Assembly (NCBI GenBank): GCA_951406725.2
Contig: OX597824.1
Span: 45,384,001-45,448,000, forward strand
DNA length: 64,000 bases
From: Octopus vulgaris
Lineage: Eukaryota
Reading direction: 5' to 3'
The notes under the pieces were generated by a model that was not told the origin of the DNA, did not search any database, and saw only the letters and a program-made list of their open reading frames with translations. Positions 291-52,405 of the stretch are shown here, piece after piece; position 1 is the stretch's first letter, and each line of letters begins with the position of its first letter. Position numbers and translations under genes: made by a program.

Positions 291-1985
291 ATCACAACTA
301 CTATTTCCATTGATATTTATTTCGATGTTCATGTTCATGTTCATGTACTTGACTCAACAGGTCTCCTCAAGCACAGTGGGACGTTCTGGGATCCAGGGTA
401 CTTTGAATGGGCAGGGGCTATGCGGAACTGGTGCAGGAAGCAGCCCGGGTCTTTGCAGTCACAGCATATCTCCAGAGATCTCGGTCCTTCGCCATTGCCT
501 CAGTGAGGCCCAACGCTCTGAGGTCATGCTTGACTACCTCATCCCATGTCTTCCTGGGTCTACCTCTACCCCTGATGCCTTCAACTGTTTGGGAGTGGCA
601 CTTCTTCACACATCTCTCCTCATCCATCCACAGTACATGACCAAACTATCGCAAGCGTCACTCTTGCACACCACATATGATGCTTCTTATGTCCAGCATT
701 TCTCTCAGGGTGCTTACACTCTGTCGTGCATGCACACTGACATTACACATCCAGCGGATCATGCTAGCTTCATTTCTTTCAAGTCTACGCATGTCCTCTG
801 CAGTCACAGCCCATGTTTCACTACCGTGAAGCATGGCAGTTCGCACACATGCATCATACAATCTACCTTTCACTCTGAGCGAGAGACCCTTTGTCGCCAG
901 TAGGGGTAGGAGCTTTCTGAACTTTGCCCAGGCTACCCCCATCCCTCCAGGCTTTCCAGGCCCGTCTCTTTGCACTAATGGCTTTGTCTACTGCACTATT
1001 CCACTACCATGTAACTCTAGGTCTGGAAGGGACTTTGCACCATCCACAGACTTGGTCTGTGGCACTCAGCAAGCTGTCCCGTAGGAATTCCCAGCTACCT
1101 TCTATGTCCGACGTCCGAAGCTCCTCCTCCCTCTCATCAAATTTCTTGATGAGGATGTCCCTAAATCTCTGACCATGTGAAGGGTTCTTTAGCTTCCAAA
1201 TCCTTCTTTTCTGGATTGGTTTGTTTCTTGGAGTCCTTCTGGCCTCAAGCTTAAAGTCACTGATGATTAGCCTATGCTGAGGGATACATTCTTCACCTGG
1301 GAGGGTCTTTGTATTTAAGAGCGACCCTGCCTTCCGCTGTATGGTGAGGATGAAGTCTATTTGGCTAGCGGAGTCTCCTGACTGATAGGTTATAAGGTGG
1401 CAGTCAGGCTTCCTGAATTTAGTGTTGCAGATTAAAAGGTTACATGCATCACAGAATTCCAGTAGTCTAGTTCCCTCATCATTTCTGGTGCCAATACCAT
1501 GGCCACCATGTACCCCAGTGAAGATACCCGATTCCCGCCCAATATGCCCATTAAAGTCTCCACCCACAAAGATGAGGTCCTTGCCACTAGTCTTTGAGGT
1601 AGCCTGTAGAAGGGTATCATAAAAGTGGTCCTTCTGATCATTTGGTAGTCCCGCTTGTGGGGCATAGGCGGAGATAATCGTAGCTGTGCCACTCTGTAGG
1701 ACCAACCTGAGCTTGAGCACTCTATCGCAAATCCTGATAACCTCTATGACCTTATCCACCCATTTCTCCGCAAGGAGAATGCCTACACCCCCTACACCAT
1801 CCATGTTACCTTGCCAGAAGACTTTGTACCTATGTGCCTTGCCTGTGAGGACCCTAGCTGAAGCACCTCTCCATCTTACCTCTTGTATGCAGCATACATC
1901 AACCCGTCTTCTCTCAAGCATCTCTACAATCTCACTAGACCTACCTTTCAATGTACCAACATTGACAGTGCCAACTCTGAAAACT
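1..1985 (-). mobile_element. RTE-clade LINE, internally deleted (APE endonuclease, C-terminus and 3' UTR present; RT absent)
   Basis: ORF 1004..2104 has APE motifs (GTVNVGTL, CCIQEVRW, SAYAPQ, GGDFNGH, SQIDFIL, QHRLII). ORFs 658..975 and 418..627 give the RTE C-terminus (KGRLYDACVRTAMLHGSETW, RGRGRPRKTW). The 3' UTR runs off the window start. Confidence 0.92.
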
Positions 1986-3280
1986 GGGAAGGAGATGTGG
2001 GGAGGAGGGGAGCAATTTAGATATGAATTAAAGCATAGGCAAAGCATAATTATAACAACAACAACAACAGCAGCAGCAGCAGCAATAAGAAATGAATTTA
2101 TCACATCATTTCTGGCTGTCCAATCTTTACAGAATCAGTGTACACAGATGTGACTTAGTCAAGAGCTATGCCAATTGGGCAATATGCTGCCTCTTCAACA
2201 TGAAAACTGAGAAGAAGTATGAACCTATATCAAACGTGATATAATACCATGATATAGGTATAATAATCTAGAATATTCTTGTCTAGACTAACATGGAGAC
2301 CAAGGCAAACTGGTTAGATGCAGCTACAAGAACCTTTGTTCTCAGGCATCTTGATCCTTTATAACCAAAATGTCTCCAGGAAAGGAGCTAAAAAGCTATC
2401 AAAAGGATCTTGAAATGGAACTAAACAGGATGTAGAGTATAAAAATAAGAACAGTTGTAACTATAAGCACAAGTTCTGAAATTCAGTGGGAGGGGACTAG
2501 TCAATTACATTGATCCCGATTATCAACTGGTACTCATTTCATCAACCCTGAATGGATGAAAGGCAAAGTCAACTTTGGTGGAATTTGAACTCAGAACATA
2601 AAGATGGATGAAATAGCACTAAGTATTTTGTCTGGCATTCTAACAATTCTGTCAGCTTGTTATCTTAGAAACAGTTGTAATAATAACTTATGCTTTATAT
2701 AAGATAAAGAAGAACATGACCAAAAGCATAAATATAATTCCAGGGCTTGTAACTGCATAACCCTTGCCAGGCACATTCCACGTTCTATACAAGACACTTT
2801 TAATTCAATAACATGACTCACACAATATACTTTGTCTCACATATACAGTTCTACATGTGTACAATTCAATAAAATACATAACTCACACGGCATATTACAT
2901 AAAATAACATGACATGCTCTTACATAATTGATTCCTAATACTGTACTGTCCTACGCACCACCACTAACTTACACAACTATCACCCAATAATATAACAGAA
3001 CCTTCACATTCCATACTCCACATAAATTCATCCCAAACTATTTTTAACTATTGCTCCCTTCCTTACACTAATACACTTTCAACCTTCCACTTATTTAACA
3101 AAGTTAATCATCTCATGAAAAATCACAGCCAACAGGTTGATCACTATTAAATGATTACTTGCACGTAAATCATTTCATCAATATAACATACAATGTAAAA
3201 TCAACATTTCAACCATTAATATAACTAGATTACACACACACACACAATAAATATTGAATAATAATATTTTTTGAAAATTA

Positions 3281-3430
3281 TGGCATGGCTGTATGGTAAG
3301 AAGTTTGCTTCTTAACAACATGGTTCTAGGTTCAGTCCCACTGCATGGCACCCTTCTTCTACTGTAGCCATGGGCCAACCAAAGCGTTGTGAGAGGATTT
3401 GGTAGATGGAAGCTGAAAGAAGCCTGATGT
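3281..3430 (+). mobile_element. tRNA-derived SINE family C (representative copy)
   Basis: A-box tggctgtatggt, B-box ggttcagtccc, body ggatttggtagaYggaaRctgaaagaagcc. Other copies at about 33067-33365 (+), 25060-25185 (-), 60800-60890 (+) and 62255-62385 (-). Confidence 0.7.
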
Positions 3431-3443
3431 GTGTGTATATATA

Positions 3444-3874
3444 CAGGTCGTCATCTTATGACCTAATCCGACTTGCAACTGATCGACTTTATGGCAATAA
3501 TACATAGTCCAGTTGAAATCTTAAGGGTTTAATTTCTTAGAAATTAACTCAATTACAGATGACATCAGCTAACATATGACATTGAAGATCTACAGCCAAA
3601 CACCAATCTACAACAAATTTTTATGCAAGTTTTGCAACTGTTTCTTAACACTACATTGTGTATTTCTTGTATTTGCATTCTTTGGTACTTTTTTAAGTAC
3701 AAATAATACTGTTGTAGTATAATACAGAATGCTGTGTGTGACTTTTACCTGAGAATATACTTTAAGAATGTAAAAATCTAAAACAAAGCTATGCAGGCCT
3801 ATAGGCCTTATGGCCAAATTGGCTTAAGACCAGTCTGTCGGAACCAATTGTGGTTGTAAGTTGATAATGACATG
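3444..3874. mobile_element. Tc1/pogo-like MITE
   Basis: Imperfect TIRs caggtcgtcatcttatgacc / ggttgtaagttgataatgacatg, with TA on the left and subterminal repeats. Confidence 0.5.
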
Positions 3875-3880
3875 TTTTTT

Positions 3881-3934
<54 letters not shown>

Positions 3935-3982
3935 ATATATATATGTAAATACATTGCTGCTCTAACTTTTAGACAATATATT

Positions 3983-4014
<32 letters not shown>

Positions 4015-4439
4015 CATACATATATGTGTATATATGCATGTATGTGTGTTTGTGCATGTATTTGTTCCAAACCACTGATTAATAACTGGTGCCTCAGCAT
4101 GGCTGCAGTCTAATGACTCCACCACTACCACAGTATTGTCCTTAGTATGCCATAAAATTTTCCATTGTCCTTCAGAAGGTTGTACTGTTCAGTACTCTAT
4201 ACAGATAACTACTCAACACTAATATAACACAACCCACACAGACCATTCAAAATACAAATCACGACCAAACAAAAATTACACAATTCACATAATGGATATT
4301 GTATACAACAAGCTAAAGAAACACTAAAATAACACCAAAACTAAGAAAATAAACCCTCACAGCAATGTAAAAATAGCTTTAATACACAAAAACAATCACA
4401 ATCCTACATTCTTAAAAGACAATTTTGCATGCCACACCT

Positions 4440-4877: not shown

Positions 4878-5292
4878 TCATCATCTTCATCGTTTAGCAT
4901 CTGCTTTCCATGCTGGCATGGGTTGGACGGTCTGACTGAGGGCTGGCAAGCCAGAAGGCTGCACCAGGCTCCAATCCGATCTGGCAAAGTTTCTACAGCT
5001 GGATGCTCTTCCTAATGCCAACCACTCTGAGAGTGTAGTGGAGTCCTTTTTATGTGCCACCAGCATGAGGGCCAGTCAGGTGGTACTGACATTGACCATG
5101 CTTGAATGGTGCCTTTTACATGCTACCAGCATGGGACCAGTCAGCTGGCACTGGCATCAACAATGCTCAAATGGTGCTTTTTATGTGCCACTGGCACGAG
5201 TACCAATCAGGCAGTACTGTCATTGGCCATGACAACGACTTCACTTGCCTCAACAGGTTTTCACAAGCACAATTTATTGCCCAGTGATTGAA
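4878..5292 (-). mobile_element. RTE 3'-UTR fragment (or RTE-tailed SINE) ending in (GAT)n
   Basis: Shares the tandem unit and the ctcaacagg...caagcaca segment with 1-400; catcatcatcttcatc tail at about 4878. Related copies at about 16210-16477 (+) and 60335-60540 (-). Confidence 0.75.
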
Positions 5293-5294
5293 CA

Positions 5295-7690
5295 GTAAGT
5301 TCTTGCTAGCAGAATTGCAGCTAGATCACAGAGTGTGAAGTGTGCTACTCTACTACATGTGGTCGAAGAGGCTATAGGTCAAGTGTATAACTCTTTTGGG
5401 TGAAGTGAGGAAACAGATAACAAGAATTTACGACAAAGTGAAGCAAAAGTTTCAGGAATTCTGTGAACCTAAGAAAAATCTGACGATTGAGAGGCATGCA
5501 TTTTTCACACGATCTCAGAAACCAGGTGAGACAATTGATCAGTATGTGACAGATTTAAAGAATAAATCTAGAACTTATGAGTTTGGGACATTGAATGATT
5601 TGTCTGTGGAATTCTTAGCCATAGACTAAGACTGCAGTATGTGCATATTGAGAAAGAGATGACAGGTATCCTACATGGATGTGAGAAGTTTCATCAGTAC
5701 ATCTATGGGAAAACAGTTCAAGTAGAAAGTGATCACAAGCCCCTTGAAATCATATTTGAAAAACTCTAGTGAAGTGTTCCTCAGAGGTTGCAGAGAATGT
5801 TGCTGCATCTACAAAAGTATGATCTTCAAGTTACCTTCAGACCCGGCAAAAAACTGATTGTTGCAAATGCCTTGAGCAGGGCATATCTTCAAGCCAGTAA
5901 TTATTAGTTTGATGAAACTGAGTGTGATGTGGACTTAATATCAGAACTGCCGATGACCTCAGGAAAGTTGAGTGAATTCAGGATTGCCACAGTGAATGAT
6001 CCCCAACTGCAACTGCTGAAGTCAGTGATTCTATGTGGATGACCAGAAAACAGAAATGATGTTCCAGCAAGTGCGAGAGACTACGGGAATATTCGAAATG
6101 AATTGACTGTTGTTGATGACCTCATCTTCAAAGTTGACAAAGTTGTAATTCCTGCAACACTATGAACAGAAATGTAGAACAGAGTACATGATGCTCATTA
6201 CAAAGTGACAAAGTGCATACTCAGAGCCAAAGATGTTATCTTCTGGATAGGAACGACTGTAAAAATTGAAGAATTTGTATCACGATGTTCTGTGTGCAAC
6301 AAGAACAGAAAGAGTAATCCGAAACAATTGTTGAAGAGCCATGAATTTCCTGACTGTGGGCCAGAGACGGAGCCGACTTGTTTGTGTACAAGAACATTGA
6401 CTACCTGGTGTGTGGGGACTATTTCTCAAAGTACCCTGAAATTGTGAAATTGTCTGACCTATCAAGTAAAGTGACAATCACAACAGTGAAATCTGTCTTT
6501 GCCAGACATGGCATCCCAGATGAGCTCATGACAGATAATGGACTGTAGTTTACAAGTGCAGAGTTCCATAACACAACATCAAGTCTGACATATCCGCAAT
6601 CAAACGGACAAGCTGAGCATACAGTTCCAATAATAAAAAAAAACCTGCTCAAGAAAACAGAAGCTAGTGGCTGAGATGTCTACTTAGCTCTACTTGAGTA
6701 CAAAAATATACCCGTTGACAAGGTCAGTTTATCACCAGCTTAAAAAAAATGAACAAGTGCTTGAAGAGTCACTTACTTATGTCCGATGCCTTGCTGAAAC
6801 CGCAGGTACATGACCAGAAGCAGCTACCTGATAAGCTGAAAGTATGTCAAGACCAGCAAACGTACTAATATGGCAGCAGTGGTAGAGAGTTACCTCCCTT
6901 GACTCCTGCACAGTAAGTCGAGATTCAAGAAAAGCAGTCATAGAAGCCTGGAGTTGTCAAATCAGTTAACACACCAAGATCCTACAATATAACGCCACCA
7001 GACAGTATTGATGAAATCGCCGTCATCTGTGGACAGCTGCTGAGAATCCAATAACTCAGCCAAATGGAGAATGGGAAAAGACTACGAACTGTGATACAGA
7101 TGGGTCTGAGACTACAGACACTTTCTGTAATCAAACTATGAGATCTGGACGAAAAATCAACATGCAGAAACGATATTGAGAGCTGCTGAATTCAAGAAGG
7201 GATCCGTGAAAACAGAGATTCATTAACTGTATCAAATGTTGTATTTCAAGTTAAACAAGCTGAACTGTGTTAATTGCTAGAAAGCATATTTCATTATTCT
7301 TTCCATGTTTGAAGAAGTTAAAGAAATTACTTTCTTAATAACCCCACCCCCACCAAAAAAAAACAAAAAAAACAAATTCATTTATGGACAGTTAAATTTA
7401 AAGAAAATATATTCATGGACTTTGGAGAAAGTTGCTTTATCAGAATGATAATGAATATATAATTGAGTTTATTTGAAGTTGATTATTTAAGTTCCAAATA
7501 TTGCCATAACTTACTTAAACTTCGTGTTTATATTGACTAAAATAATATCTCTTGCAATGTTTGTAAAAAAGAGAGATGTAATGAAAGTGTTTTTCCGTTA
7601 AGATGTGCACACAAAGTATGATGTCACGAGTTTGTGATGTATGATGTAACAAATACGCATAGTAATGGCTGTGCTCTGTGTCATGTCATA
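5295..7690 (+). mobile_element. Degenerate, deleted Ty3/Gypsy LTR retrotransposon
   Basis: Gag fragment (PKKNLTIERHAFFTRSQKPGETIDQYVTDLK), RNase H remnant (ESDHKPLE..., PQRLQRMLL, KYDL), integrase HHCC region and core (FARHGIPDELMTDNG, YPQSNGQAE) with stops and frameshifts. Polypurine tract aaaaaagagaga is followed by TGT at 7577, the likely start of a truncated 3' LTR. Confidence 0.85.
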
Positions 7691-8880
7691 ATTTACAACA
7701 AGCATCATACAAACTGCCTTTCACATTGAGGGAGAGGCCTTTTGTTATCAACAAAGGTAGCAGTTCTCCAAACTTTGTCCAGCCTATTCTTATTCTAGCA
7801 TCTATGGTTTCAGAACTACCTCCTCCACTGCTAACTTGGTCACCTAAGTAACAAAAACTGTCTTCCACTTCTTAGGATCCTCTTGGACATTTGAGGGAGT
7901 CTATTCACTGTACATATCTGGTGTTTAATGTACCTGCAAATTTACTACATATAAAGATTACTTTCTCTGTTAACCTTCCTGTGATACCATTGCACTTATG
8001 TGTCCATAGTTTGCACTGGGCACACCATATGGAGTTTCTACTAACACCTTTTCTTCATATTGAGCAAGGCCACCTCCCTGAAGGACTCAGTGATTTGTTT
8101 GTTTTCCTACTTACTAGGACTTTTGTCTTTGCTAAATTAACTCTAAGGCCCTTTGGTTCCAGACCTCATTTCCACATCTGAAACATTCTTCTCTAGTTTT
8201 AGTAGTGATTCATTAATAAGAACAAATCATCAGTGTAGAGCAGTTTCCAAGGGCAGCCTGTCTCGAATTCCTCTGTTATAGATTGGAAGACTATGATAAA
8301 CAAGACAGAGCTGAGTACTGATCCTCAGTGAACTCCTACTTGTACATTAAATTCCTTGCTTCACTTTCACTTAACTAATAGCATCCCTGCTTCTTGGAAT
8401 CTTCTTAGCCTGAAGGAATACACTCTTCACCAGAAAAGGTCTTCACATTTATGAGTATGTATCTTGCTTCCTGGTGAGAATGTAGTCAATCTGGTTGGAG
8501 TGGTCACTGAGTTTCTAGGTTATCCTGTGACTGGCTAGTTTCCTGAAGTTTGTGTGGCAGATCATTAGGTTATTCATATCACAGAACTCTAGTAGCCTTG
8601 TTCCCTCCTCATTTTGGGAACCAATTCCATAGCCCCCATGTACATTGTGGAAGACCCAGGTGCTGCCCAACATGTCCAATGAAATCACCAGCCACAAAGA
8701 TACGGTCATTTTCCTTTGAGGTAGTCTACAAAAGAATATCATAAAAAGAATCCTTTTGCTCATTTGGCCGACCCAGTTGGGGGCAGAGATAATTGTTGTT
8801 GTGCTACTCTGCAAAACTAGTCTAAGCTTAAGGACCCTATGGCACACTCTGACTACCTCAGTTTTGCAGAGTAGCACAGT
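7690..8880 (-). mobile_element. Degenerate RTE LINE fragment (endonuclease part, RT domain and C-terminal part)
   Basis: ORF 8515..8943 is homologous to the endonuclease of the first copy; WKLLYTDDL RT motif near 8226-8250; FCYLGD and KGSLYDAC in ORF 7686..7868. Confidence 0.85.
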
Positions 8881-8912
8881 AACAATTATCATTATCAGCA
8901 TCATTATTATTT

Positions 8913-9150
8913 GAGCTGACAGAATTGTTAGCACACCTGGCAAAATGCTTAGCGGAATTTTGTCCGTCCTTACATTCTGTGTTCAAATTCTGCTGAGGTC
9001 AACTTTGCCTTTCATCCTTTTGGAGGTTGATGAAATAAGTACCAGTTATGCACTGAGGTTGATGTAATCGACTAGCCCCCTCCCACAACATTTCAAGCCT
9101 TGTGCCTTTAGTAGAAAGGATTATCATTATTATTATTATTATTATTATTT
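8913..9150 (+). mobile_element. tRNA-derived SINE family A (representative copy)
   Basis: B-box gttcaaattc, conserved body gaggtcaactttgcctttcatcctttYggggtYgat..aataagtaccag, (TTA)n tail. Other copies at about 2475-2625, 4733-4875, 18905-19112, 20945-21155, 21160-21340, 36150-36300 and 37643-37855. Confidence 0.8.
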
Positions 9151-10564: not shown

Positions 10565-11305
10565 TCTATAAAAGGCATGATGTGTGTGTGTGCGTGATTG
10601 TAATTTATGCACGTCCACAAATTAGCATGCAATTAGCACAAAACTCTTTCGCACCCAAGGTAATGTGTGTGTGTGAGAGAGAGAGGGGGAGAAAGATGAA
10701 CGATCTAAAATAAATATATTGTAATTGTTGTGTGAGAAAGTATATATACTATGATTATAAAATATAGTCTTTCAAAAACATCCTGAATTTGAACACTATA
10801 TTTCGTGTTTAAGAAAAAACAAAACATTTTACATTTTATTTTTTATGAACGTCGTCACTTTCTCTCTCTCCTTCTCTCACTTTGCCTTTCCCTTTTTTTT
10901 TGTTTTCTTTATCTTATTTTTTTTTTGTTAGATGCTGTCAAAAAGCTATGGCTGAAAATAGATTTTTATGAACGCCGTCACTTACTTTCTCTCTCTCTCT
11001 CTCCCTCTCTCACTTTGTCTTTCCTGTGAAACTCTCTGCCCCTCTTCCACTTTTCTTTATCTTGTTGTTTTCTTTTGTTAGATGCCGTCAAAAAGCTATG
11101 GCTGAAATAGATTTTTACCACTAAAAGCTATGGCTGAAAATAGAATTTTACCACTATCTGTGGGTGCCTTGGGAAAAATATGTTGACAAAACCCAGATAG
11201 GATGTTGACGAATGTCCTCCTAAAATTTGAGTGACATGCGTGCTAATTTGTGGATGTGCATAAACTACAATCATGTACACACACACACATCTTGCCTTAT
11301 ATATA
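10565..11305. mobile_element. MITE-like element with about 70-bp TIRs and internal direct repeats
   Basis: aaggcatgatgtgtgtgtg..gattgtaatttatgcacgtccacaaattagcatgc is inverted at gcgtgctaatttgtggatgtgcataaactacaatcatg..cacatcttgcctt. Internal repeats of gatgcYgtcaaaaagctatggctgaaa; flanked by (TA)n. Confidence 0.75.
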
Positions 11306-11480
11306 TATACAGATATAAATTAGAAAAAAACCCACCTTTTATCAATTCAACAATGAAAAAATTAAATTATACCATTTAGAAAAAATCATATCTTATCGAA
11401 AAATTAAATATAAGATAAAACATATACCAATGATTAAGTAATGTGCAAAATAATAAATAAAACGTATATATTTGGTAAAA

Positions 11481-11561
11481 TAACTACACGTGTTTCGTGG
11501 CTATATTTAAGAAATGATAACAGTAAAACCAATTCAATATAAATATAGCCACTCTTCAGGT
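11481..11561 (-). ncRNA. Type I hammerhead ribozyme motif (stem I 5'-truncated)
   Basis: AC-CUGAAGA-GUGGCUAUAUUUA-(30 nt)-UAAAUAUAGCCAC-GAAAC-ACGU-GUA/GUUA: perfect 13-bp stem II and palindromic ACACGUGU stem-loop III. Confidence 0.8.
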
Positions 11562-11754
11562 GTGTATGTATTTGAACCATTTTCTATTTTTAATTCTAAT
11601 ATTTATAGCTTGTACTAGTATTATGTATATTACTTAACATGAAGTCTTTTTAGTAGACATTACTTAATGAGAATAAGATTTTATTTAGATGTTTATTAAA
11701 TAAATAAATAATTTAATTTAATGTATATAGATTAAATTATAGTATTTTAGTTTA

Positions 11755-11826
<72 letters not shown>

Positions 11827-12049
11827 AAAATAATTTAATTAATTGTATTTTCTAGTAATGATGTATTATAGTTTATTATTCTTTTCTTATATATGTTAAA
11901 ATTTTATTTTTATAGATAATAATAAATATTTATACCTCTTTATCCTATTTCATATTTACACAAGAATATATTTAAGATATTTTGTATTTTACAAGATTAT
12001 ATATGTATGTTTGTTATTTTATTTAATTAATTATTTTTGTTTTTATCTT

Positions 12050-12132
12050 TAACCTGAAGAGTGGCTATATTCATATTGAATTGATTTTACTGTTATCATT
12101 TCTTAAATATAGCCTCGAAACATGTGTAGTTA
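12050..12132 (+). ncRNA. Type I hammerhead ribozyme motif
   Basis: UAAC-CUGAAGA-GUGGCUAUAUU..AAUAUAGCCUC-GAAAC-AUGU-GUA/GUUA: both core boxes, stems I, II and III, and a GUA cleavage triplet. Confidence 0.8.
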
Positions 12133-12623
12133 TTTTACCAAATATATACGTTTTATTTATTATTTTGCACATTACTTAATCATTGGTATACGTTTTATCT
12201 TATATTTAATTTTTCTATAAGATATAATTTTTTCTAAATAGTATAATTTAATTTTTTTATTGCTGAATTGATAAAAGGTGTTTTTTTCTAATTTATATAT
12301 ATATATATATATTTTGTGAAATTTTATTTAGTATTTCTAAATTAAATTTTTCCCTGTAAGTTTGGAGTAATATTCCCTCATATATATACACACACACACA
12401 TATATATATACATACATATATACAGAGACACATATATATAAACATTTATACATACATATATATATATATATATACACACATAGACACATAATATAGGTAG
12501 AGAAAATCCCAGCTGTTTCCTCTTGAAGCATGTTGGTTAGTCCATTATTATAATCAATAAGTATCTATAGCTACTGCATATTAAAACTGAGAATTATGGA
12601 AATATTATTACCAGAGGTATTGT

Positions 12624-12816
12624 ATAAGAAAACAAGAAAATGAAAATTTTTTGGTATTATTTATTCTCCATTAAACATTTCATTTGCTAATAGGAATTAC
12701 AAAGATTTACATGTTAGATACACATGTAAATCTTTGTAATTATTAATAGCAAATGAAACACAAGTAATGGAGAATAAATAATACCAAAAATCTTCACTTT
12801 CCTGCTTTGTTATATA
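12624..12816. repeat. Imperfect hairpin with about 90-bp arms
   Basis: aattacaaagatttacatgt-tagatac-acatgtaaatctttgtaatt at the centre; ttttggtattatttattctccatta / taatggagaataaataataccaaaa further out. Confidence 0.9.
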
Positions 12817-12850: not shown

Positions 12851-13049
12851 CAGTAGCATCTCAGTTTTCGAACAAGTCTGATCACGAAGAAATCGTGCTT
12901 TATCTCCTGTCTTTCTTATATTCATTTAATACACTATCTCAGTGTAGGAATGCCTCTGATCATGAATAAATCATGCTTTATATATATCTATATATATGAA
13001 AAACACAACTTATTCGTAATCAGAGTTGTTCGAAACCAAGGTACTACTG
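12851..13049. mobile_element. Pogo/Tigger-like MITE
   Basis: TIRs cagtagcatctcagttttcgaacaagtctgatcacgaa / ttcgtaatcagagttgttcgaaaccaaggtactactg, within (TA)n. Confidence 0.65.
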
Positions 13050-13754: not shown

Positions 13755-15032
13755 TTGGGTTGTTTGGAAAGTTCATGTTGATTTATAGTAGCTTACCTTT
13801 TGACTTATTTTAGAACATGGTTGAGTCCATAAAATAGGATTTGACTACACCTCCATTTAGAGCACAGTTTAAGCTATCTTTTCGTTTATGTTTATGTTTC
13901 TATATCCTGTGTTAATTCTGTAACCCTTTAAAATGGAAGATAAGAAAGTTCATTTTTGGCACTTGATGCTTTTCTTTTTCCATAAAGGGAAAAATGCCTC
14001 ACAAGCATCCAAATAAATATGCGCAGTTTACAGTGATATTTCTTTATCTGAAAGAACTGTACGGAAGTGGTTTGCAAGGTTCTGAACTGGAGATTGTAGC
14101 CTTATTGATAAAGAGCCATCAGGCAGACCATCCACTACAGATGATGATCAAATGAAGTAATTAATTGAGAATAACCCACATTGCACAACCCGAGAATTGG
14201 TAGAAAGCCTCAATTTATCAAAATCCGTCGTTCATGCACACCTGGTAAATCTTGGGTACACAAAGTGCTACGATGTTTGGGTGCGACATGAGTTGAGTGA
14301 GAAGAACCTTTTGGATCGCATTTCCATCTGTGATTCCCTTTATAAACGGAATGAAAACGAGCCTTTTTTAAAGCAAATTGTGACAGGTGATGAGAAATGG
14401 ATTATCGACTGAAATGCTCAGGGAAAGCGATCCTGGAGTAAGCGACACGAGCCACCCTTAGCCACCTCAAAAGCTGGTCTTCACCCTAAAAATGTTTTGC
14501 TTTGTGTCTGGTGGGATTGGAAAGGAATTCTGTACTATGAGCTTCTCCCAAGTAACCAGACAATTAATTCTGAGAAATACTGCACACAATTGGACGTGTT
14601 AAAAGCAGCTGTTCAAGAGAAATGCCCAGAATTGGCCAACAGGAAGGATGTAGTTTTCCAACATGATAATGCAAGACTGTACGTTTCTTTGGGAACCAGA
14701 CAAAAATTGCTGCAGCTCGGCTGGGATGTGTTACCCCCCCCCCCCCCCCTCCATATTCACCAGATGGATTTCCACTTATTCAGGTCTCTGCAGAATAGTC
14801 TTAATGGTAAAAATTTCAATTCCTTGGATGACATAAAAAGATACCTTGACAAATTCTTTGTCATGAAACCATCTCAATTCTGGGAAGGGGATATTTTCAA
14901 GCTAAAGGAAAGATGGAAACACATTGTGCAACAAAATGGTTCATATTTGATTGATTAAAAATGTAATGGCAAGTATTTATTGACCTTTTTCTTTCCTTTA
15001 AAAAATTGGGATGAACTTTCTAGACAACCTAA
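13755..15032 (+). mobile_element. Full-length (about 1.28 kb) mariner DNA transposon, inactive
   Basis: TIRs ttgggttgtttggaaagttcat / atgaactttctagacaacctaa, TA on both sides, typical mariner length. Confidence 0.93.
13933..14958 (+). pseudogene. Mariner (DD34D) transposase pseudogene
   Basis: WVRHEL (WVPHEL-like), IVTGDEKWI, MLCVWWDWKG, FQHDNAR, DFHLFRSLQN. In-frame stops (e.g. near 14012, 14083, 14158, 14410), and the HPPYSPDL region is disrupted by a poly-C run. Confidence 0.9.
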
Positions 15033-33870: not shown

Positions 33871-34062
33871 ACTTCCACCATCTTTACAGTATACCTACCT
33901 AACTTTTAATATTACTGCAAAAAAAAAAGATTAAGAAAGTGGCAGCAGAAAACATTAGGTAGATCCTTAGTAGTAGAAGATAAGAACACAGTAGATTTAT
34001 GATTGATATAGGTAGATGTAAAGAGTAAATATGAGGTTTGAGAGTAGTGATCAGTAACCTAC

Positions 34063-34208
34063 CATCAATAATATCAAGTTTTACTTTCTGCAGTTCCCTT
34101 CTCATTTCTGCAACAATCTCCTGCTTCAGCAATTCAAAATCACCGGATGTGTTGCCCCCACCATTAGATACAGTGATAATTTCTTGACCAGTCAAGGAAA
34201 GCTTTTGT
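34063..34208 (-). CDS. ena: Ena/VASP exon: tetramerisation coiled coil, (R)QKLSLTGQEIITVSNGGGNTSGDFELLKQEIVAEMRRELQKVKLDIID
   Basis: Within ORF 33899..34252; acceptor tgtttttcag|A and donor G|gtaggt. DFELLKQEIVAEMRRELQKVKLDIID matches the VASP_tetra motif (DLDRMKQEILEEVRKELQKVKEEIIDA). Confidence 0.95.
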
Positions 34209-34415
34209 CTGAAAAACAGAAACGAACAGATTTTTGTTTTTAAAAATAACAATATTTTTGTGCTGGAGTTTGGACAGCCTTAATGTCATAAAAGCTGCCC
34301 TCTGTTTACACATACTCTGGTTTACATAATCTGACAACAATATGCAAATGAAAATCTTAAGCACATTGTCTGTCTCTTCTGCTAATATAATAATCTACAC
34401 TCAATTGTACTTTAA

Positions 34416-40937: not shown

Positions 40938-41244
40938 GTCTTTGGGAAGACCCACTCCACCACCAAATTGAAGTGCCAGCCGTCATAATGTGTTTAAGAT
41001 ATACTATAGGTTAATAGGTTAGAAAGTTGTTCCATAAATTCTTGAAGCAAACTAAACTCATCCTGCAATTTTTTAAAATTATTTATTTGGTCTTTGGAAG
41101 ATCCTCTGCACCACCAAAGTGAAGTTCCATCCATTATAATGTATTAAAATATACTATGGTTTGGTAGGATAGAAAGTTGTTCCATAAATCCTTGAAGCAG
41201 ACTAAACTCCCCCCTCCAATTTTCTTTTTATTATTTATTTGGTC
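40938..41244. repeat. About 150-bp tandem duplication
   Basis: gtctttgg.aga.cc.ct.caccaccaaa...agaaagttgttccataaat.cttgaagca.actaaactc...ttatttatttggtct occurs twice. Confidence 0.85.
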
Positions 41245-42242
41245 TAAGAAAAGAGCTGTGTCCACAACATCTTCAGTAATGTTTTATTCAAGTAGCTGCA
41301 GAAAAAACATGTACAGAGAAGGAATGTCTGACGGTTAATATTTAGGAATGACTGGACATGTTAGTGCAGCACCTACAGGAGGTGGTGATAGTGGACATAA
41401 TATTGGTGATAAAGAAAGGAGACATGAGTTAGTTAAGAATTCCTGAGTGGAGAAGGCATGAGACCAGCCAGCTCCAAGGAACAAAGGATACTAATGGGAA
41501 TAGAGTGTATTTCTAACCACAAACTGTCTTTTTAGTTCATCCAATGCAACAAAAGTAGTGAACTGTAACAAAGGTTTCTGCTATCTACAACTGCAGAAGA
41601 TAAAATCCTAGAACACCCAATCCAATTTATGCCAGCATGCAGAAATGTTGATGATAATGTTGTTGATAACAACAATCACTGTTCATATTGTTAGATTGGA
41701 TTGGATTGCCTATGTTCAGTCCACTGTAGGATGAAGGCCTCAGAATGTTCTCTCCATGAGTTTGAGCTTCAGATCATACTGGTTTGATAAGCTTTCTCTG
41801 TCACACTGGCTCAACATGGCTTGGCAGAAGGTTCATATTGTTAATCAACCTAAATTAACTAAACTCAAGTAGAGTGGTGGTATGGAGGATAATGGTATGG
41901 AAAAGGAAAGAAAAATGTTACAAAATATGCAAATCAAATATTTTCTTTTTCTACGAAAGATTTCCCAGAGAAGCAAATCTCATGTAGGTAAAACCCAAAT
42001 ACTTTACTTTTACTTTGCAGTGAGTGACAGTTAAGCTTAAGAATAGGGTGTACTTTCTAGGCTTGGTTTATGAGTGTTTACTGTATGAATCTACTTGTGA
42101 CATTTCCAACACAAACCATTCTGTGTGTTGGCTATCTATCATTTTTCACTAGAAATATCTTGATTTAGTCTTTTGTACAGAACTAAAATGTACATTCTAT
42201 CATACTGAGTTATAATGTACTACTACTTGACACGATTTTTAC

Positions 42243-47845: not shown

Positions 47846-48507
47846 CGAGTGGAAGAGCTAGTGCATGTGGGAGCGGGAGAGCTAGTCCGCGTGGGAGTGG
47901 AAGAGCTAGTCTGCGCAGGAGTAGAAGAGCTAGTGTGCGTGGGAGCGGACGAGCTAGTGTGCGTGAGAGCGGACAAGATAGTGTGCGTGGGAGCGAACGA
48001 GCTAGTGCGTGAGAGAGCAGAAGAGCTAGTGCACGTGAGAGTGGAAGAGCTAGTGCGCGCGGGAGTGGGAGAGCTAGTGCGCACGGGAGCGGGAGAGCTA
48101 GTGCACGCGGGAGCGGGAGAGCTAGTGCACATGGGAATGAAAGAGCTAGTGCGCGAGAGTGGAAGAGCTAGTTCACACAAGAGTGGAAAAGTTACTGCGT
48201 GTGAGAGTGGAAGAGCTAGTGTGTGTGAGAGTGGAAGAGCTAGTGTGTGTGAGAGTGGAAGAGCTAGTACGTGTGAGAGTGGAAGAGCTAGTGTGTGAGA
48301 GTAGAAGAGCTAGTGCATGAGGGTGAAAGAGATAGTCCATGTGAGAGTGGAAGAGCTAGTGCATGTGAGAGTGGAAGAGCTAGTGCATGTGAGAGTGGAA
48401 GAGTTTGTGTGAGCTAGTGCATAAGTGAGTAGAAAAACAAGTGGAAGTGCTAGCACATGAGTGAGTAGAAGAGTTAATGCATGATTGAGTGGAAGAGCTA
48501 GTGTGTG
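47846..48507. repeat. 24-bp minisatellite (gagtggaagagctagtgcRYgtga)
   Basis: More than 20 units with internal variants, degrading toward the right; purine-rich on the plus strand. Confidence 0.95.
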
Positions 48508-51500: not shown

Positions 51501-51828
51501 CTATGCATTCTGAAGAACTTAAAGTTGCTTGAGTTTTTATCAGAACTCTAAAGATCATTATAAACAACTAAAATGATACACCTATTTGAATTCTTCCACC
51601 ACACAAACACACGTGTGTGTGTGTGTGCAATGAATATGTGAGTGAACATTGATAATTATGAACATCAGAAAAATGTATTCAATATATGTATCGGAAGAAA
51701 ATTTATTTGAGAGTTGGAGCTTGACTAACATGACTGAGTTTTGCCTATCAGCACGTCATGTATATATTTATACAACCCAGGGTTGAATGAATCAAAAAGA
51801 TATCACAAGTCTCCCTCAAGTAACTTAC

Positions 51829-52163
51829 CCGTGCAACAGACTTTAACTTGGCTTTCTGGAGTGCTTCAGCAAGTCCCCCTCCTCCAGTCGGCAGAGGTGC
51901 AGCTACGGCCGAGCTATTTGTTGGAAGAGGTGGTGGGGGAGGGGGTGGTGGTGGTGCTCCAACAGGTGGAGGCTGGGGTGCTACTGGCACAGTAGGAGCA
52001 GCTGGGGGCTTGGGTGGACCGGTCATTGCTGGAGGTGGCCCGGGTGGTGCAGGGGGCACCGGTGGTGCTACAGGCGGCTGAGACGAAGAAGATACCTGTT
52101 CCCTATTAAGAGTTCCAGCAGAGTTTGCCATCATCATAGACTGGGGTGAAGGATCCTTCATTC
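51829..52163 (-). CDS. ena: Ena/VASP exon: proline-rich region (PPVAPPVPPAPPGPPP...GAPPPPPPPPPLP) plus G-actin-binding block GLAEALQKAKLKSVAR
   Basis: ORF 51748..52161; acceptor ctctttacag|GA and donor CGG|gtaagt. The GAB motif resembles vertebrate GLAAAIAGAKLRKV directly after a poly-Pro profilin-loading site. Confidence 0.93.
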
Positions 52164-52405
52164 CTGTAAAGAGAAGTCAACAAAAGTTATTACACTGAAC
52201 ATAAGAATGTGGCCTTTCATAATTTTTATGCTTCTGTCAACCAATCAAGTCTCAGCAGTACGCTTAACACATTTATTTTTGCTGCAGATTATAATTTCAA
52301 TGTTTTCTGGATTGATTGGTTAAGTGTCATAAGTTTAGCTTAAACACTCCCAGAGGTATTGCTGTAATCTTGAGTGAAGCACGTGGCTTAAACTAAAGAA
52401 ACTGG

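Follow-up and report, generated by a model that had tools for sequence, protein, structure and literature searches.

In metazoan Penelope-like elements (PLEs), hammerhead ribozymes combine a large helix II with a short helix I, a small palindromic helix III and the pair G10.1-C11.1; most copies are solo and truncated, with action as dimers predicted, and dual motifs on opposite strands lie 100 to 700 bp apart (PMC4209133). A short palindromic helix III has been linked to cleavage as a dimer (PMC4209133; reviewed in PMC6765202). An inverted, 5′-truncated copy adjoining the 5′ end is described as typical of PLEs (PMC8557442), and inverted pairs of this architecture have already been published for them (PMC4209133, PMC8557442). 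Work in vitro with a Penelope-like protein showed that it cuts and extends AT-rich DNA on both strands, found hammerhead cleavage to be dispensable and detected no RNA reads ending at the cut (PMC11167929), and the role of hammerheads in endonuclease-bearing PLEs has been called unclear (PMC8557442).

Several described groups invite comparison with the octopus element reported here. Hydra-clade C-terminal EN+ PLEs target (TA)n and carry a type I hammerhead in sense orientation near the 3′ end, with a stem I of 4 bp, a short helix III and, in 12 of 26 rows, a cut after A; Penelope-13_HM has a 5′-truncated inverted copy and a hammerhead on both strands (PMC8557442). That a PLE can harbor a long helix II insert is known from PLE-X1_sMoe and PLE-X1_sTam of Selaginella, whose loop II measures 34 and 29 nt, with a 9-bp stem II in the former; unlike the octopus element, these are endonuclease-less plant elements with a 28S rDNA target (PMC8557442). 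Animal non-LTR retrozymes are likewise noncoding and of low GC content, carry a type I hammerhead and are tied to PLE terminal repeats (PMC7229834; bioRxiv 10.64898/2026.07.22.740005); they are defined by head-to-tail units and circular RNA (PMC7229834), whereas head-to-tail units are absent from the octopus locus. No cephalopod is named in the Results and Discussion of PMC4209133. An O. vulgaris repeat library includes 31 recently active Penelope-like families (PMC13282606), and neither "hammerhead" nor "ribozyme" occurs in the main text of that report. Our literature search, whose reach ended short of this library, found no description of the octopus family, which may already be catalogued there.

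Here we analyze a locus within a 64-kb stretch of Octopus vulgaris DNA (the window). We interpret it, with a probability of roughly 0.85, as head-to-head 5′-truncated copies of an abundant octopus hammerhead repeat, most likely made in one insertion by a PLE reverse transcriptase/GIY-YIG enzyme at (TA)n. Among the named kinds, the element is closest to the Hydra-clade PLEs; the locus has no open reading frame (ORF), and the likeness comes from the hammerhead, the target and the layout. The three helix features given above for metazoan PLEs recur in it, together with the G10.1-C11.1 pair and the opposite-strand motifs, as do the target, the sense hammerhead near the 3′ end, the 4-bp stem I and the short helix III of the Hydra clade. 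With Penelope-1_NV it shares the GTGG/CCAC base of stem II (PMC8557442).

RESULTS

Layout of the locus. The two arms lie in inverted orientation at 11313-11561 and 12052-12294 (11301-11561 and 12052-12312 with the flanking TA), and a gapped alignment gives 95.2% identity over 248 columns, with 10 mismatches and one 2-nt gap (Table 1). The inverted arms of about 250 bp that an earlier, sequence-only reading had described are thus real, but its picture of two arms plus a spacer has to be revised: the sequence between the arms is repetitive too and, on the right side at least, represents the upstream body of the element. This spacer contains an internal duplication of about 120 nt (11706-11814 versus 11828-11934, 74%), inside which the (TA)29.5 run lies, and the last 30 to 35 nt of 11824-12049 correspond to what the family has 5′ of the hammerhead. 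Given that the duplication spans the central TA run, the forward copy appears to be continuous across this run, which no listed contig bridges. A 5′ truncation with an inverted 5′-truncated copy at its 5′ end is present at the locus. Neither a direct pLTR tandem or direct repeat of the arm nor a one-sided tail of 30 to 40 nt was found at the locus, both arms ending at the same base.

The forward copy measures 735 nt and lacks an ORF, with a longest stop-free stretch of 50 codons. It contains no PLE reverse transcriptase or GIY-YIG ORF, as expected of a truncated copy, and none of the 222 ORFs of the window matches a Pfam family of this kind, in line with the earlier claim. Because a 5′-truncated copy of 735 nt would be without an ORF with either kind of parent, this does not bear out the nonautonomous nature proposed in the sequence-only reading; the odds are about even between a parent PLE with coding capacity and an extended AT-rich 3′ region and a noncoding derivative.

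Table 1. Features of the octopus locus, with positions counted from the start of the window.
Feature	Position	Strand	Basis
Left (TA)n-rich target flank	11298..11312		From sequence
Inverted 5′-truncated copy of the element's 3′ end, ending two bases into stem I	11313..11561	-	Arm comparison and family contigs
Left hammerhead core	11481..11561	-	Descriptor match, sequence, folding
Head-to-head junction, 2-4 nt overlap between copies	11558..11561		Family contig ends
5′-truncated start of forward part, AT-rich (16% GC), repetitive	11559..11764	+	Family contigs, computed composition
(TA)29.5 run within degenerate internal duplication	11765..11823		Repeat analysis
Upstream body of element, 12% GC, no ORF	11824..12049	+	Family contigs, computed composition
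Right copy, complete type I hammerhead motif	12050..12132	+	Descriptor, folding, family letters
166-nt 3′ segment past predicted cut; fixed 3′ end, then (TA)n	12129..12294	+	Family contigs
Right (TA)n target flank	12295..12312		From sequence

The element sits among remnants of other mobile elements, about 22 kb from an Ena/VASP exon. On its left it is adjoined by nested short duplications; these, tandem units of 65 to 67 nt and a 150-nt dimer lie at 1-287, 5048-5210, 40938-41245 and 10840-11156 of the window. A near-perfect palindrome of about 143 nt (12648-12790, -72.6 kcal/mol) lies 350 nt to its right and resembles a small MITE or foldback element; a weaker second hairpin with a TA run at its center follows at 12948-13031 (-24.8 kcal/mol). 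The other remnants comprise LINE endonuclease sequences at 1004-2134(-) (Pfam Exo_endo_phos) and 8515-8982(-), which may be of RTE type, a broken LTR retrotransposon pol at 5378-6545(+) with RNase H, integrase zinc finger and core (Pfam), and a mariner-type transposase at 14161-14958(+) with HTH and Transposase_1 domains. Exons of an Ena/VASP gene were recognized at 33902-34279(-) (VASP tetramerization domain) and 51751-52176(-) (proline-rich), the latter matching an Octopus vulgaris Ena/VASP-type protein with 100% identity across 79% of the query, which marks the window as octopus DNA. A 24-nt tandem array at 47847-48403 (23.5 copies) has open frames on both strands and no Pfam match.

Two hammerhead copies with a long helix II. 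A hammerhead descriptor run on both strands of the whole window gave three matches, at 12054(+), at 11559(-) and, weakly, at 8233(-). The first predicts a cut after 12128, the very position named in the sequence-only reading, and the second a cut at 11485. Two matches with a stem II of at least 10 bp were observed in the window, compared with none in 100 dinucleotide shuffles; given that 12054(+) and 11559(-) are copies of one sequence, they amount to a single independent observation. The match at 8233(-) was dismissed as chance level, 12 of 100 shuffles matching at that stringency.

In the left copy, the CUGAAGA box (11559-11553) is followed by a stem II of 13 perfect base pairs, as had been claimed, a 30-nt loop, GAAA and the palindrome ACACGUGU, and stem I comprises only 2 bp. 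The right copy has CUGAAGA at 12054-60, helix II at 12061-12116, GAAA at 12117-20 and helix III at 12120-27; its stem I (12050-53/12129-32), read earlier as UAAC/GUUA, is complete there and only there, and its stem II has two mismatches, at 12072 and 12115. The core (12054-12128) lies in sense orientation, 166 nt from the element's 3′ end. Two of the earlier statements hold for only part of the structure. The palindromic helix III attributed to both copies is perfect on the left but broken on the right (ACAUGUGU), and the 30-nt loop has the stated length in the left copy but is not single stranded: 7 additional pairs form in it and leave a 9-nt terminal loop. The helix II insert is 56 nt long (13 bp plus 7 further pairs); folded on its own, it reaches z scores of -4.1 in the right copy and -5.6 in the left, in each case against 500 base shuffles. 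This helix is indeed unusually long, the 26 Hydra-clade rows (PMC8557442) having at most 7 bp and a loop of at most 10 nt, and the helix II of metazoan PLEs 6 to 8 bp (PMC4209133).

An Rfam search, which the sequence-only reading had suggested as a check, returned no hammerhead among 61 matches at an E value of ≤10, and no match of any kind at the gathering score over the whole window; miRNA matches near the element all scored below gathering, mostly on TA/CA runs or simple hairpins, and were discarded. The 56-nt helix II insert evades standard ribozyme searches such as Rfam.

The family in public contigs. Evidence on the family was drawn from assembled contigs of public runs. In four runs with three organism labels, 1,416 to 3,015 contigs per run matched 467 bases of the element, and a fourth organism label also has family contigs, showing that the family is an abundant octopus repeat. 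Summed contig depth, which is not a copy number, is highest at 12129-12294; for run X2 it ranges from ∼300 to 4,100 at 11830-12005 and reaches 447,000 in the 3′ arm. Past 12294, loose ends start with TA runs in three of the four runs, those in which such a row is listed (15, 13 and 11 contigs). At the locus both outer arm ends abut TA runs as well, supporting the (TA)n target proposed earlier, which is that of EN+ PLEs of the Hydra, Naiad and Neptune types, and a TA target-site duplication is unreadable inside these runs.

The family majority letters A at 12115 (93 to 98% of depth), C at 12123 (91 to 96%) and C at 12128 (84 to 89% in the four runs) restore stem II and the helix III palindrome and change the cut triplet to GUC, so that the GUA triplet noted in the sequence-only reading belongs to a minority. 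Both arms have in common seven letters that differ from the family majority, as expected from one template or subfamily. Variation among family contigs falls mainly within loop II, where the strongly mixed sites 12092 and 12094 lie inside the 9-nt terminal loop. Lesser variants, at 12116 (C to T) and at 12102, retain G-U pairs; G at the position of 12051 in one run and C at 12131 (3 to 10%) are both compatible with stem I, with linkage unreadable. Given that the tables list columns rather than linked haplotypes, no two-sided compensatory change is demonstrable from them. No variant occurs at 12117-12122 or 12124-12127 among the 40 listed of 60 variant rows, or at 11530-11561 among the 40 listed of 50, in tables that seem unable to show variants in the outermost 30 or so bases at either end of the compared stretch. 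The CUGAAGA box was masked in one contig comparison and lay at contig alignment ends in the other, which makes for a weak test of its conservation.

Further contigs point to diversity within the family: recurrent loose ends at 12085 suggest a subfamily with a longer loop II and those at 12190 one with a diverged 3′ segment. A 100-nt contig of run X3 (depth 47) is identical to 11589-11688 and may represent the locus itself or a copy very close to it; in this run, too, GUC prevails. A 382-nt contig of run X15 (depth 42) extends from upstream into the CUGA box; that this run is RNA is a guess, and its 10 contigs were not counted as expression. Pattern scans for the element in metagenome contigs, prokaryote genomes and viral contigs gave no match.

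Truncation and inversion joints. In all four runs, loose ends of family contigs past 11561 (9, 15, 6 and 1 contigs; 31 in total) resemble the reverse complement of 12015-12051, with an agreement of 0.82 to 0.84 in the three multicontig rows, and do not match 11562 onward. Given that the family thus extends upstream like the right copy, the left arm is a 5′-truncated inverted copy rather than the terminal repeat of a MITE, which also supports the view that its end inside stem I is due to 5′ truncation. Pieces of the arm end at 11558-11561 and pieces of the forward part begin at 11558-11563; the two 5′ ends thus joined overlap by 2 to 4 bases, and the junction has no TA run. Loose ends before 11559 come from two contigs in run X2 and one in X3. 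Opposite-strand joints also occur elsewhere in the family, at 12086/12242 in all four runs and at 12149/12193 in two, with 12189/12140 and 12174/12152 listed in addition. Judging from the length of its sides, the 12086/12242 joint would be head-to-head; for the others the direction is not given.

Origin of the unit and alternative explanations. A single insertion into (TA)n is the best reading of the unit, which would consist of an inverted 249-nt copy and a forward copy of about 735 nt. According to this model, a PLE enzyme would nick both strands of a TA run, cDNA would be primed twice from the element's 3′ end, one product would halt after about 735 nt and the other after 249 nt, and the two would be joined via the 2- to 4-nt overlap (microhomology). 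Where the family is active, its hammerhead would be expected to cleave after GUC while paired into a dimer through the ACACGUGU palindrome. The Penelope-type origin put forward earlier gains support from the inverted truncated copy, the (TA)n target and the sense type I hammerhead. From the 4 to 5% divergence of the arms, and a scale on which 0.09 corresponds to 25 million years (PMC13282606), the insertion would be roughly 6 to 7 million years old.

The parent could also have been a non-LTR retrozyme with a unit of over ~700 nt, copied from circular RNA by PLE enzymes, the locus then being a two-armed insertion of less than one unit. We regard this as possible; it overlaps with the PLE insertion and differs from it solely in the parent. 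The 735 nt without an ORF and the upstream reach of the X15 contig (if RNA) are in its favor, and retrozyme units of 51 to 972 bp are on record, many families being mostly monomers (bioRxiv 10.64898/2026.07.22.740005). The head-to-tail hammerhead repeat implied by the retrozyme suggestion of the sequence-only reading is absent from the locus, a longer unit being compatible with the range to 972 bp; against a retrozyme, the forward copy also lacks a second hammerhead or unit repeat, the family sequence before 11559 does not resemble the element's 3′ end, and no circle-type joint is among the joints listed. An unlikely alternative to a single event is that two members of the same subfamily inserted independently, one at the other's 5′ end, 11559-11764 perhaps being a different repeat. 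The family does target TA-rich DNA, the listed contigs leave the central TA run unbridged, and seven of eight polarized arm differences fall in the right arm, which two separate insertions fit equally well; this 7-to-1 split is, however, not significant (two-sided binomial, ∼0.07). Moreover, a junction that joins two 5′ ends outside any TA run, the seven minority letters common to both arms and the internal duplication that ties the two sides of the TA run together all argue against separate events.

With its long inverted arms, TA flanks, missing ORF and high abundance, and with a mariner remnant 2 kb away, the unit has the looks of a DNA transposon of MITE or foldback type, with terminal inverted repeats of 250 bp and a duplicated TA target, whose hammerhead would be a fossil or a coincidence. 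This explanation is largely refuted, and we give it next to no weight: the family goes on at 11561 into the upstream sequence of the right copy and not into the left inner flank, inversion joints lie at varying places in family contigs, nothing else in the window, the mariner remnant included, matches the arms, and the hammerhead motif is missing from all 100 shuffles. The sequence-only reading had likewise held that the unit is not a MITE. It is also quite improbable that we are dealing with the 3′ end of a Naiad-clade PLE, with a hammerhead that escaped descriptors limited to a spacer of 7 to 17 nt. Octopus Naiads do target (TA)n and have long AT-rich 3′ regions, Naiad_Ovul being flagged "HHR_half_core" (PMC8557442). 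However, the short motifs of the element are absent from the supplement of PMC8557442, the 3′ ends of Naiad_Obim, Naiad_Ovul, Naiad_Omin, Naiad_Esco and Naiad_Adux given there look unlike it by eye, and the core context (GTGG..CCAC-GAAAC) is nearer to Hydra-clade rows such as Penelope-1_NV. A motif search combined with inspection by eye revealed no identity with the 3′ ends of Naiad_Obim, Naiad_Ovul, Naiad_Omin or Hydra-1_Obim, the last of which has a hammerhead of different sequence. Inspection of the five cephalopod Naiads by eye did not support reading Naiad "half cores" as full long-stem hammerheads.

Ribozyme activity at the locus. Both hammerhead copies of the inserted PLE-type repeat are probably dead. 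They lie on opposite strands, which leaves one per transcript and no dimer within a single transcript, and the arms of a read-through transcript are predicted to pair over 235 to 239 bp. The folding figures are to be taken as hints, because the program ignores the noncanonical core: they put the active monomer fold above the predicted minimum by 11 kcal/mol in the right copy and 16 kcal/mol in the left, and the palindrome self-duplex at -10.3 kcal/mol for the left copy (8 bp) and -6.0 kcal/mol for the right. In the right copy, the prediction pairs the CUGAAGA box with a hexamer that lies directly 5′ of stem I (12046-12060; probabilities of 0.65 to 0.97), a pairing that may hold the monomer inactive; on the left, it has junction sequence pairing across the cut triplet. 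The hexamer is also present in the loose ends of the family. No ORF overlapping the hammerhead, of the kind known from Anolis PAc, was found.

Candidate copies that begin just past the predicted cut. Among the 24 listed of 562 loose-end rows, seven of the eight "before" rows with an agreement of ≤0.6 lie at 12136 (three runs; 14, 15 and 6 contigs), 12142 (three runs; 9, 12 and 9 contigs) and 12148 (one run; 4 contigs), and several of these loose ends finish in TA runs. They look like the 5′ ends of copies with unrelated flanks, 8 to 20 nt past the predicted cut, whereas TA sites number 37 across 12060-12290. Depth increases across 12136-12148 in all four runs and is not monotonic along the arm. 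It is conceivable, though we consider it rather doubtful, that the commonest short copies, starting 8 to 14 nt past the cut, were templated by the 3′ product of the ribozyme (∼165 nt) and spread as a mini-element. There are rival accounts: 12142-12148, where alternation extends furthest in the arm, may be a preferred place for junctions or nested insertions, alignments can be clipped to 12136 by the mismatch at 12135, and one short subfamily would be enough to yield the same picture of breakpoints.

IMPLICATIONS

Leaving the breakpoints aside, the locus represents a commonplace insertion that belongs to a known class and is probably dead, and inverted pairs of this type resemble MITEs. If the long helix II evades Rfam and short-spacer descriptors, similar hammerheads in other PLE families may have been missed. 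An abundant family with copies that start just past the cut, if this holds true, might record cleavage in vivo and would make the role of the hammerhead testable from the genome.
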